64,000 nt of DNA from a virus, in IMG/VR virus record IMGVR_UViG_3300001102_000006; one strand, given 5' to 3'. The translations under genes were made by a program, and so were the position numbers. Below are positions 21,885 to 48,881 of the stretch, piece after piece; positions within the stretch are counted from its first letter, which is position 1, and each line of letters begins with the position of its first letter. The notes under the pieces are model-generated. The model did no database searches, was not told the DNA's origin, and saw only the letters and a list, made by a program, of their open reading frames with translations.

Positions 21885-22604
21885 TCACTGAACGATTTCG
21901 TCTTCTTTGGCCACCATCGCCTGTAAGTCTTGACGTTGATCGGGTTCTTTGAGGCAGTAACCCCGCCCCCACACAGTGGAAATCAAACCGTCCGCGCCTG
22001 CTTCTGCGAGTTTTTTGCGCAGTTTACAGACAAAAACGTCCACAATTTTGACTTCGGGTTCATCCATGCCACCATACAAATGGTTCAGGAAGTGTTCTTT
22101 TGTGAGCGTAGTGCCTTTGCGCAGCGAAAGAAGTTCGACCATGCCGTATTCTTTGCCGGTCAGGTGTACCGGAGCGCCATACACGGTCGCGCTCTTTGCA
22201 TCCAGATCAACGACAAGGGGTCCGGTCTCGATTGTGGCGGATGAATGTCCTTTCGACCGGCGTACAACCGCCGTAAGTCGAGCAAAAAGCTCCACACGAT
22301 GGAAGGGAAGACCCATAACATCGTCAGCGCCTTCGGACAGAAGGGCGGCTGTTTCATCCGGATCGACAACGTTAACAAGGCACACGACTGGCGTGTGGAT
22401 GCGTGAGTTGCGTAGCCGGGTCAAAGTTTCTCGGGAGCCAAAAACGCCCAAGTTCATCAAGATCACATCATAGTCATATAGCGATGCCAGATCAAACGCT
22501 TCGTCAGCGGCGTCGGCAATGTACGGATTGAACCCCTTGCTGGACAAGGACATTTCAAGCAGGTTCGCCCGAGCAAGATTGTTTTCTACAACGAGGATTC
22601 GCAT
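21885..22604 (-). CDS. ctrA: CtrA homologue with a degenerate (non-phosphorylatable) receiver domain
   Basis: C-terminal HLTGKEY.M.ELLSLRKGTTLTKE.FLNHLYGGMDEPE.KI.DVF.CKLRKKL...TVWGRGY is nearly identical to CtrA; receiver has ENN for EDD, N at the D51 position and GLPF for TKPF. Confidence 0.93.
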   Translation of the reverse strand: MRILVVENNLARANLLEMSLSSKGFNPYIADAADEAFDLASLYDYDVILMNLGVFGSRETLTRLRNSRIHTPVVCLVNVVDPDETAALLSEGADDVMGLPFHRVELFARLTAVVRRSKGHSSATIETGPLVVDLDAKSATVYGAPVHLTGKEYGMVELLSLRKGTTLTKEHFLNHLYGGMDEPEVKIVDVFVCKLRKKLAEAGADGLISTVWGRGYCLKEPDQRQDLQAMVAKEDEIVQ

Positions 22605-40707: not shown

Positions 40708-40722
40708 TTAAGACTAAGTTAA
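40708..40722. promoter_or_regulatory. CtrA box TTAA-N7-TTAA
   Basis: TTAA GACTAAG TTAA, 25 bp upstream of the 40683 start. Confidence 0.55.
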
Positions 40723-42317: not shown

Positions 42318-42390
42318 TTTGTGAACCGCATGCTGTTGACATGTGACAATTTGTATTGCACAATGCCCATTGAAAATCTAGGTAAAAGTC

Positions 42391-43956: not shown

Positions 43957-44485
43957 CCCAAAGCACGAAGCGTTTGCAGGACACCTCGCCCGAGGTTTGT
44001 CCCAGTCTAAGGCGTATACGCAGGCGGGTTACAATCCGAACCCGGCAGGTTCTTCTCGACTGGCGAATAGCCCAGCAGTTATCGCACGTGTCGAAGAACT
44101 CAAAGATGAGATCGCATCAAAAATCGATCACGCTATGCAGGTCACAGACGAAGAAACGTTTGGGTCTCTTGCTGATCTGGGTATCACAATTGAATATATC
44201 GCTCGGCGGTACAAAGAATTGTCCGCTGCTGCCGAACAAGCGGGGCAATATGCGCCTGCAATCAATGCTATCGACAAACTGGAAAAGCTTCTGGATATTT
44301 CGGGACGCGCCGGTTCTGATGGTGACGATGAGGCAAACTCCCCCAAAATTGCCATCAGCCAAGTCAATGAAATGCTTGGCAATGTGACCGAAATGCTGAA
44401 AGCCGCCAAAGATTCTCCTGAGATGATCGACGTTACTCCGGCAGAAGAAACTCCAAAGGAAATCACGGATGATCACACTTCATGA
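43940..44485 (+). CDS. terS: Terminase small subunit
   Basis: LDNPKHEAFA.HLARGLSQSKAYTQAGY HTH; overlaps terL. Confidence 0.75.
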   Translation: MPCLDNPKHEAFAGHLARGLSQSKAYTQAGYNPNPAGSSRLANSPAVIARVEELKDEIASKIDHAMQVTDEETFGSLADLGITIEYIARRYKELSAAAEQAGQYAPAINAIDKLEKLLDISGRAGSDGDDEANSPKIAISQVNEMLGNVTEMLKAAKDSPEMIDVTPAEETPKEITDDHTS

Positions 44486-46109
44486 GCGCAAAGAGTATCG
44501 CACAGCGATTGCTCAGTTTGACAAATACATTGAAGTAGTTGACGAAGCTATTCTTCGTGGTAAGCCTTTAGACCCGGCAATGGCTGCGGGTTTGTTGGCA
44601 ATGACAAACACGTCTGACTTACACAACCAGTTGAAAGCACTCAAAGCTGTTCGAGATCAGATTGACGCACAGTATGATGCAGAACTTTTGCACGCCGCGC
44701 CTTTCCGCTTTTCCCCATTCTGTGAGTATATGTCACGCCACGAACCCCCGGCGATGCACCATGAATTTCTGATCGACCACATGGAACAGGTGCATAACCG
44801 CGACATCATGCGATTGGCTATCTCTATGCCTCCCGGTTCAGCAAAAAGCACCTATGCTTCAAAGCTGTTTCCAGCATGGCATCTCGGTCGTCGTCCGAAT
44901 GATCGTTGGCTGCAGGGCGCACACACACAAACATTTGCCAAGGACCAATTGGGTAAACCTGTTCGCCGCATTGTTTCTGATCCACGGTACCGTGATGTGT
45001 TTCCAGAGATGGGACTATCGGCTGGGTCTGCTGCTGCTGATTTCTTTGAATTCACCGGGGGTAAAGGATCGTACAAAGCGGTTGGCGTTGGCGTGGGTAT
45101 TTCTGGTTTCCGCGCAGAGATTGGCGCAATCGATGACCCTGTTGCTTCTCGTGAAGACGCCGAAAGTCCCACAAGTCGCCGTAAACTACACGCTTGGTTT
45201 GAGGATGACTTCTCGACCCGACCAATGCCGGGTTCTCCCATCTACATTGTTGCCACACGCTGGCACGAAGATGATTTGATCGGACACGAACTTTCAAAGA
45301 TGAAAGAAGGCACGTCTGATTATGATTGGGAAGTTATCAATGTCCCCGCCATTGCAAAGGAAGAAGACCCACTTGGTCGTGAGGCTGGTGAGGGTCTTTG
45401 GCCCGAAGTTTTTGGAACAGATTGGTACCTCGCAAAGAAGCGCGGCATTACAGGACGTTCGTGGAATTCTTTGTATCAAGGCGAACCGACTGATGAAGAA
45501 GGCGGCATTCTGAAACGCACAGATGTGTCTCGCTGGACAACAATGCCGCGCGACCGTGTGCGGAGTGATGGGACAATGGTAGACAAGGTGGTCAAGAAGA
45601 TCAGTTTGTCCGTTGACTTGGCGGAAAAAGCAAATCAACGTGCCGACTTCTCGGCGGCGACCGTGTGGATTGAAACGTTTGATCGCAAACACTATCTTGT
45701 GCATGCCTCACGTATCCGGAAAGAATTCAACGACCAAGTGAAGTGGATTGAACACCTCGCAAAGTCGTGGAATGTTCATCAGGTTTTGGTGGAAGATCGC
45801 GGCGCTGGTACACAATACATCCAAGTGCGTAAGGAACAACCGGGTTTTGCCCCGGTCATTCCTATTGCTACAAAGCAACAGTCCAAAGACTTCCGCTTCG
45901 ATGGTGTCACTCCGATGTTTGCTGCCGGAGAAGTATTCCTTCCTGAAAGCGGCAACGACTGGATCGCGGACGTTGAGAATGAACTGTTTGTCTTCCCCAA
46001 CGGCAAGAACGATGACTACGTTGACAGCGTGTCACAGTATTTGGCATACGCCCGCGCAGGTGGCGGACGTGTCCGAGGCACGGCGAAGGTTAACTCCGGA
46101 TTTGGATGA
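44469..46109 (+). CDS. terL: Terminase large subunit
   Basis: Walker A MPPGSAKST, GAIDDP, VATRWHEDDLIG, SVDLA, VEDRGAG, FPNGKNDDYVDSVSQ. Confidence 0.93.
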   Translation: MITLHERKEYRTAIAQFDKYIEVVDEAILRGKPLDPAMAAGLLAMTNTSDLHNQLKALKAVRDQIDAQYDAELLHAAPFRFSPFCEYMSRHEPPAMHHEFLIDHMEQVHNRDIMRLAISMPPGSAKSTYASKLFPAWHLGRRPNDRWLQGAHTQTFAKDQLGKPVRRIVSDPRYRDVFPEMGLSAGSAAADFFEFTGGKGSYKAVGVGVGISGFRAEIGAIDDPVASREDAESPTSRRKLHAWFEDDFSTRPMPGSPIYIVATRWHEDDLIGHELSKMKEGTSDYDWEVINVPAIAKEEDPLGREAGEGLWPEVFGTDWYLAKKRGITGRSWNSLYQGEPTDEEGGILKRTDVSRWTTMPRDRVRSDGTMVDKVVKKISLSVDLAEKANQRADFSAATVWIETFDRKHYLVHASRIRKEFNDQVKWIEHLAKSWNVHQVLVEDRGAGTQYIQVRKEQPGFAPVIPIATKQQSKDFRFDGVTPMFAAGEVFLPESGNDWIADVENELFVFPNGKNDDYVDSVSQYLAYARAGGGRVRGTAKVNSGFG

Positions 46110-46902
46110 ACGCATCAAGAGAGCAGCGAAGCATAAGTTTAGCTGATCGTGTTGGCCATTCCATTTTCTTCTCGTATTCTTCGAGTCCCATTTCTTCGGA
46201 CAGCAAAAGTCCGATAATGGTTTCAAGAAAAGCGCCTTGCAATCGCCACAAAACCACAGCAATTTCGTCGTCAGACTCAAGAAAGTCGGTGACAGAGACT
46301 TTTCCAGCCGATATGCAGAACGTTTCCCAGTGCATGAGAATGTCGAGCGCCGCGTCCACGTGCTTTGTTTCAATTTTGAAGCCCTGACGACGCCGACCCA
46401 ACGCGAAGATCATCTCACTTTTTTGGCTGTATGAGGTGAGATATCCGGTACGTTGGTAACGGACCCGCGTTGGAACTGCGCGGTCCGAAGAACCCGACGC
46501 TTGTTTCTTTGCGGCATATCGCAAAATGTCCTTACCTTCGTGTGTGCGGTAAATGGCATCAGACGCCAACAGCGCTCCGATTGCTTCGGCAGGAATTGGT
46601 TCGACAACTCGACCAGAACGTGCGTCGATCACGCCCGCAACAGAAAGATCGCGCGACACCACAAAAGTATGGTGTGTCGTTTGCGCTCGGGTCAGCATGG
46701 CATCAAGGGATTGTTGCTTGAGTGTCGTTTTCCCTTTCTCACGCAACTCCATATAGTGATCGAAAACTGGGTCTTCGCGCATATCCTCAACCTTGCGGGT
46801 TTGTCGCAGAATGGTGGAGGGCTGAACGTCCTTTTCGCGGGCGACCTGTCTCATCGACTTGCCGCTCACATGTTCTTCGTAGCTGTCAATAGCCTCTTGC
46901 AC
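46090..46902 (-). CDS. gafA: GafA-like (DUF6456) GTA activator homologue
   Basis: N-terminal SMRQVAREKDVQPSTILRQTRKVEDMREDP parallels GafA HTH; RVRY; C-terminal GLEEYEKKMEWPTRSAKLMLR parallels GLE.AEKR.GWSARSGK.VLR. Confidence 0.7.
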   Translation of the reverse strand: MQEAIDSYEEHVSGKSMRQVAREKDVQPSTILRQTRKVEDMREDPVFDHYMELREKGKTTLKQQSLDAMLTRAQTTHHTFVVSRDLSVAGVIDARSGRVVEPIPAEAIGALLASDAIYRTHEGKDILRYAAKKQASGSSDRAVPTRVRYQRTGYLTSYSQKSEMIFALGRRRQGFKIETKHVDAALDILMHWETFCISAGKVSVTDFLESDDEIAVVLWRLQGAFLETIIGLLLSEEMGLEEYEKKMEWPTRSAKLMLRCSLDAFIQIRS

Positions 46903-46911
46903 TTGCTTCTC

Positions 46912-47454
46912 CTAACTCTGTTTGGCTTTCATGTCGGAACCGTAGAACTTTGCTTTGTTCCAGAATTCGACGCTTGCCATATTTACACGATAGCCTGCGG
47001 CTGCATTCATGTGGGAGATGTGCGACAGAAATTCCTGCGCAAGCTCGGCACTATGTAGAAGCGACAGACTTTGGATGATCCGGCATACCCGGAGATGATT
47101 GTGGTCACGATGTGACAGCACCAAAGGCTTGCCCACGTCACCACTGTAGAAGCGCCGCATGTATTGGTTGGCGCGAATGAGTTTGTCTTGGGCCGCAGCA
47201 TCGACGCGGATGCTTTCGACATCATCCCACGTAAGCACAGGAGAGTCAGGCTGGCAAGCCGAAGGCGTCATGGTCGGGAACATCCACTGGATCAGTGTAT
47301 GGTACCTTTCAAATTCGGAATGGGGCATACCATACCCACCACCATCCGGATAAGCGGTGCCGTCTTCGGGTGTCCGCACAATCTGATGGATGTAGTAAGG
47401 AGCGTCCGGATGCATGATCTCGCCGCGCAGAAATTTGTGTACGTTACTCGCCAT
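46912..47454 (-). CDS. Opioid growth factor receptor (OGFr)-like domain protein
   Basis: HTLIQWMFP...PVLT, DHNHLRVCRIIQSL. Confidence 0.75.
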   Translation of the reverse strand: MASNVHKFLRGEIMHPDAPYYIHQIVRTPEDGTAYPDGGGYGMPHSEFERYHTLIQWMFPTMTPSACQPDSPVLTWDDVESIRVDAAAQDKLIRANQYMRRFYSGDVGKPLVLSHRDHNHLRVCRIIQSLSLLHSAELAQEFLSHISHMNAAAGYRVNMASVEFWNKAKFYGSDMKAKQS

Positions 47455-47980
47455 GGGTGTCCTCCGCTTTGTATGATTCGAAGTTATAGCCGATTGTCTC
47501 GTTGAACACAACCTCCCTTCCGCTGTCATTGAGAATTACCCAGACAGTCCACTTACCATTGATTTCGGCGGAGCGCAGAACGACACCAAGCGTTCCCTTG
47601 GACACAGGCACGAAACCCTTGGTCCCATCAATCTTGACATTTTTCCGCCGGTTGAATTTGAACGGTCCCCACTTACAGGGAACATAAGTGCCGTAGCATT
47701 TCTGTTCGTAGATCGCTGCGAGGCAGTTTGCAGTGACGCGAATGATGCGGCCTTTGTAGTATTCAGCGTGACCATCACGCGGCTCGTCGTGATCTGGAAC
47801 CCGGCTGATCTCAGCCCAATGTGTTGCCCGGAACCGGCGCGGATCACCCTGCCAACCAACCCGAGTGTTTCCGGACGGGCTATCGACTTGAAGAAATTTC
47901 ATCGTTTCCTGATGTCCACGATGCCCGACAATATACGTGCCGCTTTTTGTTGGTGGGGTAGTTAGTGGGGTCCAATTCAT
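47444..47980 (-). CDS. Hypothetical protein
   Basis: W.P...PP.KSGTY...THWAE N-terminal module. Confidence 0.55.
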   Translation of the reverse strand: MNWTPLTTPPTKSGTYIVGHRGHQETMKFLQVDSPSGNTRVGWQGDPRRFRATHWAEISRVPDHDEPRDGHAEYYKGRIIRVTANCLAAIYEQKCYGTYVPCKWGPFKFNRRKNVKIDGTKGFVPVSKGTLGVVLRSAEINGKWTVWVILNDSGREVVFNETIGYNFESYKAEDTHGE

Positions 47981-48881
47981 TCGTCATCTCCTTCATCCAA
48001 ACACTTCTCACAGGCGTTGCAAGACCAGCAGTAACGGCAGCCGCAATCGCTCCCACCGCAGTCGCAGCAGTCATATACATTGTCGCAGTCACAATCGTCG
48101 TCCATCGTTCGCCCTCCAAATTTTGCTTAGCCTTACATCTATATGATTCGTTATGGTCCGTCAACAGGAAAATGCTTGACAAGATGTGACAATTTGTGTT
48201 AGACATGTTGGGCCAGATAGGCTCATCTGGTGTTCCTCCTTCAAACTGTCCCGGCTTCGCGCCGGGACTTTTTTCGGGACCCACCGATATCGATCTACCG
48301 GGTGGGGAGGGCGAAAAAGGGATTGTAGTAGCGGGAAAGAAACCTGAATCCCTGAGATACCCATTAAGATCGCCAGTAGCTTTCCCATTTCCTCCCACAC
48401 CATACCACCCATTCCCAGCAGCCGCCGGGAAAGTTAAGAGTATGTGAAGATGTAAGCCCTGCGTAAATTTGGCAGACCTTCATTCTTTCTCTCGGACGAT
48501 TTGTTTTTTCAAAATTGCATCACCATCTCAGCCCAAAATGAGATGTGACAATTTAGAGACCCAGTTTAATCGATTCGCCGGGTGGGTCACGAATCACAGT
48601 ACCCGAATCGTGTGAACATCTAACTAACTGATTTTGCTCAATTTATTTTGTCACATCTCAATTATTGACGTGACAATTTGCCTGAAACGTCACATTTAGG
48701 CTCCGACAAGCCCTGATTTGCCCCCGACACAGGCGAATCAGGGCTTTTTGTCTGCCGGGACCCACCATGATTCGAGATGGGGGCACGGTACTAATTTTGC
48801 TGATGTTGACTTTTTCTACGCTGACGAGTTTTTATTATAGAGATGCGTTGTTTATTAAACTTTTCGCTGTAGCGTATAAAC

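Follow-up and report, generated by a model that had tools for sequence, protein, structure and literature searches.

A compact GafA-family gene in a DSS3phi8-like roseophage and its possible role beside a phage CtrA

Introduction

A gene on the minus strand of a 64,000-nucleotide stretch of viral DNA (IMG/VR record IMGVR_UViG_3300001102_000006; the whole stretch is referred to here as the window) raises the question of why a phage should carry a relative of GafA, an activator of gene transfer agents (GTAs), and on which promoters such a protein would act. The original prediction described the gene, at 46090-46902, as a GafA-like activator with a shortened middle, convergent with the terminase gene. 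It was suggested to switch on the phage late genes or to cross-activate host GTA genes for parts, completing a two-step cascade together with a CtrA-type regulator encoded by the same phage (CtrA*). The analysis presented here places the encoded 270-aa protein (P0001) securely in the GafA/DUF6456 family and indicates that it belongs to an accessory module. Its function is probably that of an early transcription factor working with CtrA*.

Membership of the GafA family

When P0001 is compared with Pfam, DUF6456 (PF20057) is matched over 31 residues (234-264; E 4.5e-6, 27.2 bits), which is 0.9 bits above the gathering cutoff of 26.3 bits, and the orthologue P0002 scores 28.6 bits. The assignment is marginal for P0001 alone but secure through its clade, since the Pfam match is backed by several other comparisons. 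The syntenic orthologue P0003, 35% identical to P0001, matches DUF6456 at 48.4 bits (E 1.3e-12). BLASTP aligns P0001 end-to-end with gp38 of phage RDJLphi1 (E 8e-15, 24% identity), a protein carrying DUF6456 at 42 bits, while gp37 of the same phage has a Trans_reg_C match. Eighty chromosomal loci were fetched from named Rhodobacterales, and a chromosomal GafA profile of 79 proteins (median 382 aa, the length of GafA from Rhodobacter capsulatus, RcGafA) finds P0001 at E 2e-18, through residues 3-65 (39 bits) and 239-263 (12.7 bits), with the middle of the protein going undetected. A match of the predicted structure to full-length DUF6456 proteins, described below, completes this evidence. The parallel with GafA that had been proposed for the N-terminal helix-turn-helix (HTH) and the C-terminal segment is thus borne out, with matches to both the Pfam and the GafA profiles.

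A wider view of the family is consistent with this assignment. An exhaustive phmmer search with P0001 over 1.84 billion representatives returned 97 matches, most of them proteins of 340-400 aa aligned in two collinear stretches, the N-terminal HTH and the C-terminus. DUF6456 is carried by 25 of the 26 aligned family members, with a best E of 1e-60. The N-terminus of P0001 also matches phrog_31864 of PHROGs (E 3e-16), and its HTH shares 40% identity with Ruegeria GafA over 53 aa. Scans of IMG/VR with P0001 or with small alignments gave no confirmed relatives. A match between residues 62-151 and P0006, a protein of 3544 aa, was rejected as spurious, as it was summed over 34 stretches of identical coiled repeats with an E of about 0.005 each.

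Predicted domain architecture

The structure of P0001 was predicted with AlphaFold2 from an alignment of 82 sequences, giving a mean predicted local distance difference test score (pLDDT) of 89.7. In this model an HTH domain (residues 1-55) is followed by an alpha/beta domain (63-131), a disordered linker (136-154) and a helical C-terminal domain resembling sigma region 4 (157-269). The best cluster matches in the AlphaFold DB are full-length DUF6456 proteins, aligned over residues 2-270 (E 2.6e-9). Among solved structures, residues 1-60 resemble domain IV of DnaA (PDB 1j1v, Z 7.7), residues 197-270 resemble region 4 of extracytoplasmic function (ECF) sigma factors (Z 8.1) and residues 61-137 bear a weak winged-helix resemblance (Z 5.8). 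Middling as these Z-scores are, they reproduce the two resemblances, to DnaA domain IV and to sigma region 4, that have been published for GafA. Neither a sequence search nor Foldseek against the PDB gave a significant match to P0001. Of the ECF sigma regions, the solved-structure matches listed align region 4 alone, at residues 197-270, with no domain corresponding to sigma region 2.

The DNA-reading elements have been well preserved. In the recognition helix PSTILRQTRK, which follows the family pattern PST[IV]LRQxR[RK]xE, the spacing S-x-I-L-x3-R-R/K is retained, so that S29, I31, L32, R36 and K37 correspond to S43, I45, L46, R50 and R51 of RcGafA, positions at which alanine substitutions impair activation of the R. 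capsulatus GTA (RcGTA). RcGafA (Rcc01865, 382 aa) and P0001 therefore share a DnaA-like N-terminal HTH in which the functionally required positions are kept. They also share a C-terminal, sigma4-like DUF6456 HTH with a W-x-x-R-S-x-K helix, where R252, S253 and K255 of P0001 are near-invariant across the family. The central alpha/beta domain appears to lie in the same place in both proteins, a likeness visible in the fold model only. The model, its full-length AlphaFold DB match and the family alignments show a collinear three-domain GafA architecture, composed of the HTH, the central alpha/beta domain and the sigma4-like domain.

P0001 is about 98 residues shorter than RcGafA and the chromosomal Rhodobacterales orthologues. 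Set against the long forms, P0001 lacks alignment columns at five points: 18 at the N-terminus, 25 following residue 62, a further 25 following residue 150, 19 following residue 199 and 11 at the C-terminus. The description of a shortened middle is therefore correct only in part; the central domain itself (63-131) is kept in the model, and the shortening is spread along the whole protein.

The gene and its operon

The open reading frame (ORF) of P0001 is the longest on the minus strand at this position. It begins with a GTG codon six bases 3' of AGGAG, and the start has been confirmed by P0002, which is 84% identical and begins at the same position with ATG. In comparison with the uncultured contig L005, the ratio of nonsynonymous to synonymous substitution rates (dN/dS) is 0.048, and this is a real gene under purifying selection. 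The predicted convergence with the terminase large subunit gene (terL) is confirmed: the two genes share 20 bp at their 3' ends, where no intervening terminator was found.

The GafA-like gene closes a conserved operon. The order of a 178-aa protein gene, an OGFr_N-like gene and the GafA-like gene, converging on terL, is kept in two uncultured contigs, L005 and L004. In one of these two, identity to the window is only 37% for the GafA-like protein against 86% for TerL, so that the regulator is the fastest-evolving gene of the locus; gafA has also been reported as fast-evolving. The promoter-like element at the operon head shares its geometry with further promoters in the early region of the phage and is an ordinary early-type sigma70 element. 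Positions of these and other features are collected in Table 1.

Table 1. Location of, and evidence for, the features described in the window
Feature	Position	Strand	Evidence
Full-length CtrA-like response regulator (CtrA*)	21885..22604	-	Response_reg + Trans_reg_C
Terminase large subunit (terL)	44469..46109	+	Terminase_6N/6C; phrog_38 E 2e-102
GafA-family (DUF6456) regulator gene, P0001, 270 aa	46090..46902	-	Pfam, BLASTP, profiles, AlphaFold2 model, synteny
OGFr_N-family protein, ~180 aa	46912..47454	-	Pfam and synteny; directly upstream of the GafA-like gene in 3/3 phage contigs
178-aa protein of no known family, first large operon gene	47444..47980	-	Conserved in 3/3 contigs
42-codon ORF with 11 Cys, operon head	47977..48105	-	Present in the window and L005
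Operon promoter-like element (TTGACG, GAATC in the spacer, TATAGAT)	48137..48164	-	Conserved in the window, L005 and L004
Small RNA gene	48205..48274	+	Conserved in L005 and L004
Nearly invariant stretch	48311..48385		Three phage contigs
Stand-alone DUF2793 protein, 115 aa	62934..63281	+	E 4e-27

Among the remaining genes of the operon, the OGFr_N-family gene likely starts at the ATG at 47454, after GGAGG, and its longest ORF extends to 47529. In the atlas, clusters of this family are half viral, and fusions to ADP-ribosylglycohydrolase occur in some members. The 42-codon ORF, whose stop overlaps the start of the next gene (ATGA), is absent from L004; at the DNA level it weakly matches a gene annotated as hypothetical in Stenotrophomonas phage DLP_5.

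The host phage and its relatives without the regulators

The terminase of the window is about 69% identical, at the DNA level, to those of the 147-kb siphophages vB_RpoS-V10, DSS3P8, RcXuper and MD18, which infect Ruegeria, Roseobacter, Rhodobacter and Phaeobacter. The cluster of P0001 sits on a contig of 145,870 bp, and the left 40 kb of the window holds minus-strand genes for nucleotide and DNA metabolism. The phage, uncultured and of marine origin, belongs to a virulent-looking DSS3phi8-like roseophage lineage of about 146 kb.

Three cultured members of this group, V10, RcXuper and MD18, have neither a GafA-like nor a CtrA-like gene. They possess the same terminase block, with the same layout of promoter and terminator ahead of the terminase genes as in the window. 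P0001 is therefore not the core late-transcription factor of the phage group, and the pair of GafA-like and CtrA* genes is an accessory module of the lineage rather than the core late switch of the group.

Association with CtrA-type proteins

The co-occurrence with a phage CtrA that had been noted in the window was found to involve a full-length gene, 24 kb from the GafA-like gene, whose product is 55-58% identical to bacterial CtrA. An orthologue of CtrA*, 61% identical, is located on the same contig as P0003. Such pairings are found elsewhere. GafA-like genes and genes with a CtrA DNA-binding domain (DBD) are adjacent in RDJLphi1 and in the contigs of P0022 and P0063, and the 103-kb phage MW462191 carries both types. 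Altogether, pairing of GafA-like and CtrA-like genes recurs in at least six phage lineages. A tblastn cross-table of CtrA-bearing phages was dominated by contaminated records and the generic OmpR-family regulators they contain.

A further arrangement has been detected in Rhodobacter phage RcPescado. Its gp59 (L003:5659-6264), presently annotated simply as an HTH protein, combines a DUF6456 match over residues 32-81 (33 bits) with one to Trans_reg_C over residues 120-192 (55.6 bits) and is a natural fusion of the C-terminal DUF6456 segment of GafA with a winged-helix DBD of the CtrA/OmpR type. In the same phage, gp68 (L003:2977-3180) corresponds to a stand-alone N-terminal HTH of GafA, similar to GafY (E 1e-19 against the family profile); the R. 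capsulatus phage paper reported no match to rcc01865. The recurrent pairing and this fusion are the strongest hints that GafA-like and CtrA proteins cooperate.

Control of the GafA-like gene by CtrA*, as the proposed two-step cascade would require, was left unsupported. Near the operon a single CtrA-like box, TTAA-N7-TGAA, was found at 48434, about 270 bp upstream of the promoter. It contains one mismatch and is not kept in L004, the divergent relative, and no conserved CtrA box occurs at the operon promoter. Expression of chromosomal gafA depends on CtrA. The lack of a consensus box does not preclude CtrA control of the operon. A further candidate box, at 40708 and ahead of the terminase block, was discarded because even L005, a close relative, does not retain it.

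Promoter motifs and neighbouring elements

A motif, GTGACAATTTG / TTGTCAC, lies between the -35 and -10 boxes of two promoters, that of the terminase block (42336) and that of a small RNA (48176), and is enriched (5 copies against 0.9 expected). It was considered as a GafA site and rejected, because V10, RcXuper and MD18, which have no GafA-like genes, present TGTCAC there; in these phages it is found in the same promoter spacer as well as in early intergenic regions. The TTGTCAC/GTGACAA motif probably marks the operators or promoters of a regulator that all phages of the group share. Sites have been located at 42336-42364, 48176-48204, 48545, 48648-48678 and 57264 of the window and at about 13030-13290 of L002, and an inverted repeat form, TTGTCAC-N15-GTGACAA, also occurs. 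Neither a ZBE-like palindrome nor an internal terminator specific to the GafA-bearing phages was found.

The small RNA gene, with its promoter at about 48176-48204, diverges from the promoter of the GafA operon, the two -35 boxes being 12 bp apart. The transcript is predicted to fold with a hairpin at its 5' end, an unpaired CCUCC and an intrinsic terminator; its folding z-score is -4.25, and it scores 30 bits against Rfam SorX, below the gathering score. Nearby, the stretch that is nearly invariant among the three contigs shares 83% identity with 71 unannotated nt lying between tRNA-His and tRNA-Cys in the tRNA arrays of KVP40-like Vibrio phages. Neither ARAGORN nor Rfam calls it, and its folding energy is unremarkable on both strands.

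Distribution and origin

The relationships between family members were explored with a quick, arbitrarily rooted tree of sequences of at least 200 aa, in which branch support was given by the Shimodaira-Hasegawa-like approximate likelihood ratio test (SH-aLRT). With full support, P0001-P0004 group in a clade on a long branch, outside the crown of long chromosomal forms that holds the named Rhodobacterales. Short forms are clustered on the tree, with 7 label changes against 26 expected, and wherever their context was read they lie in phage or prophage early regions. Together, the position of the clade outside the chromosomal crown and the phage or prophage setting of the short forms whose context was read indicate that the gene is not a recent capture of a host gafA.

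The phage homologues are located in early or replication regions. Short GafA-family genes are distributed over unrelated types, including DSS3phi8-like phages, Xiamenvirus, RcPescado, a 45-kb contig and integrase-bearing elements. In the phage-like 45-kb contig, a GafA-like gene of 304 aa (L093:106-1020; DUF6456 115 bits) is the first called gene and precedes those for a primase/helicase and DNA polymerase A, at the head of a replication operon.

Comparison with known systems

That roseophages carry GafA homologues had been suspected in the original prediction, and such a case has indeed been published: gp38 of RDJLphi1 (Xiamenvirus) was described as a homologue of GafA (rcc01865), beside a truncated CtrA (gp37) and a homologue of rcc01866 (gp36) (Hynes 2016, PMC5026251; Fogg 2019, PMC6363796). 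As with P0001, gp38 is a short form encoded by a phage (310 vs 270 aa); the two proteins have their three-part architecture in common, and a CtrA-like gene is also carried by the phage of gp38. Nonetheless, the two proteins fall in different clades of the quick tree at 24% identity. The CtrA of RDJLphi1 is truncated and adjacent, whereas that of the window has its receiver domain and is distant. RDJLphi1 is moreover a 63-kb phage with GTA-like tail genes, in contrast to the DSS3phi8-like phage of the window, in whose 64 kb no homologue of rcc01866 (DUF6477) was detected by the same profile that does find gp36.

In chromosomes, gafA has a characteristic neighbourhood. The locus of Ruegeria arenilitoris, with the order DUF6477, GafA (388 aa), LysR, redoxin and lipA, reproduces the published one. 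The gene of P0001 instead lies in a phage operon next to terL and shows neither rcc01866 nor the lipA/guaA synteny.

In Caulobacter crescentus the family is represented by GafY and GafZ. GafY contacts sigma70 domains 3-4 and activates together with IHF; GafZ is an antiterminator, loading between -35 and -10 (Tran et al. 2024, PMC11150451). Both, as is also true of P0001, lack the long central loops of RcGafA, and they are encoded by two genes in C. crescentus where the window phage has one fused protein. A functional analogy with Q-lambda and Q21, phage factors with a sigma4-like fold that load at a promoter, may also be proposed, and a preprint on BaGTA has argued that GafA/GafZ resemble Q21. 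No sequence or fold match to Q-lambda/Q21 was obtained for P0001 among the PDB matches listed, and its gene converges on terL instead of lying upstream of a late operon.

Probable function and rival explanations

Taken together, these observations make it probable, with considerable room for doubt, that P0001 is a compact GafA-family transcription factor serving alongside CtrA* as an early accessory activator or antiterminator. The protein would be made early by the host RNA polymerase and would bind promoter DNA with two elements, the DnaA-like HTH at its N-terminus and the C-terminal HTH resembling sigma region 4. It would contact RNA polymerase, as GafA and GafY/GafZ do, and would activate, or possibly antiterminate, a later set of transcripts, most likely together with the phage's own phosphorylation-independent CtrA. 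There is a slight leaning towards targets among the phage genes rather than those of the host GTA or CtrA regulon, and no support was obtained for cross-activation of host GTA genes as a source of parts.

Several points weigh against this interpretation. The Pfam match of P0001 itself is marginal, and its fold Z-scores of 7-8 are in a range common among HTH domains. With the 79-protein GafA profile, no likeness in sequence could be detected between its central domain and the region through which RcGafA binds Rpo-omega. No GafA-like target site was identifiable in the analysis of the window, and no nucleotide-level GafA binding motif has been defined for Rhodobacterales in the literature. Lastly, the close cultured relatives achieve late transcription without a GafA-like protein, which indicates that its role may lie outside phage gene expression.

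Such a role is the subject of the most serious rival explanation, an unlikely one that still carries some weight, in which P0001 and CtrA* mimic the CtrA and GafA regulators of the host and force host promoters on during infection, including those of the GTA cluster, the lysis, head-spike and tail-fibre loci and other genes of the CtrA regulon. The N-terminal HTH is the part of P0001 most similar to chromosomal GafA, as seen in the Ruegeria comparison, and keeps the functionally required positions. This conservation could, however, stem from contacts with RNA polymerase rather than from a shared DNA site, and the C-terminal and central domains are highly diverged. The degree of identity between CtrA* and bacterial CtrA, as well as the accessory nature of the pair, absent from cultured relatives, would suit the imitation of a host circuit; on the other hand, a clade on a long branch outside the chromosomal crown does not correspond to a recent copy of a host gene. 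A stand-alone gene for DUF2793, a conserved domain of the RcGTA tail-fibre protein Rcc00171, is present in the tRNA region of the window, but the rcc01866/DUF6477 homologue is missing from the 64 kb and no gain for a lytic phage from inducing a GTA is evident.

It is improbable that P0001 acts instead as a decoy or dominant-negative form, a trimmed protein that fills GafA sites or titrates a GafA partner and so blocks induction of the host GTA and the lysis it entails. The residues lost relative to the long forms include linker and loop segments flanking the central region, which in RcGafA carries the contact with Rpo-omega, while the DNA-reading helices are kept, and both points speak for such an inhibitor. 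The central domain is nonetheless kept and confidently folded in the model, many phages and prophages carry forms just as short in the early-region settings that activators typically occupy, and C. crescentus GafYZ activates without those loops. A generic HTH protein resembling GafA by chance or through a common fold, as the short Pfam match barely above cutoff, the middling Z-scores and the lack of a PDB match by sequence or Foldseek might suggest, is very hard to reconcile with collinear matches at both ends to more than 90 family members, a full-length match in the AlphaFold DB and the strong DUF6456 match of the syntenic P0003.

Implications

Phage homologues of GafA beside CtrA were already known as a kind from RDJLphi1, and the gene of the window is a further member. 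The gain from this window alone is accordingly modest, with a secure family call and a function that is not new in kind. What has been added is a clade outside the chromosomal GafA crown, cultured relatives free of both regulators, a pairing that extends over at least six lineages and the fusion in RcPescado gp59.

A broader proposal, speculative and rather doubtful at this stage, is that GafA-like and CtrA-type proteins constitute a portable two-regulator module, linked, unlinked or fused, of alphaproteobacterial phages of unrelated types. It would rewire RNA polymerase at promoters of the CtrA/GafA type, including those of the host GTA regulon, and host GTA control would have been inherited from it instead of being a host invention. 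The recurrent co-occurrence of GafA-like proteins with CtrA DBDs, together with their fusion, supports a phage origin of the CtrA-GafA control of GTAs. These compact natural variants, and the culturable case of RcPescado on R. capsulatus, also provide material for dissecting the contacts that GafA makes with RNA polymerase and CtrA.

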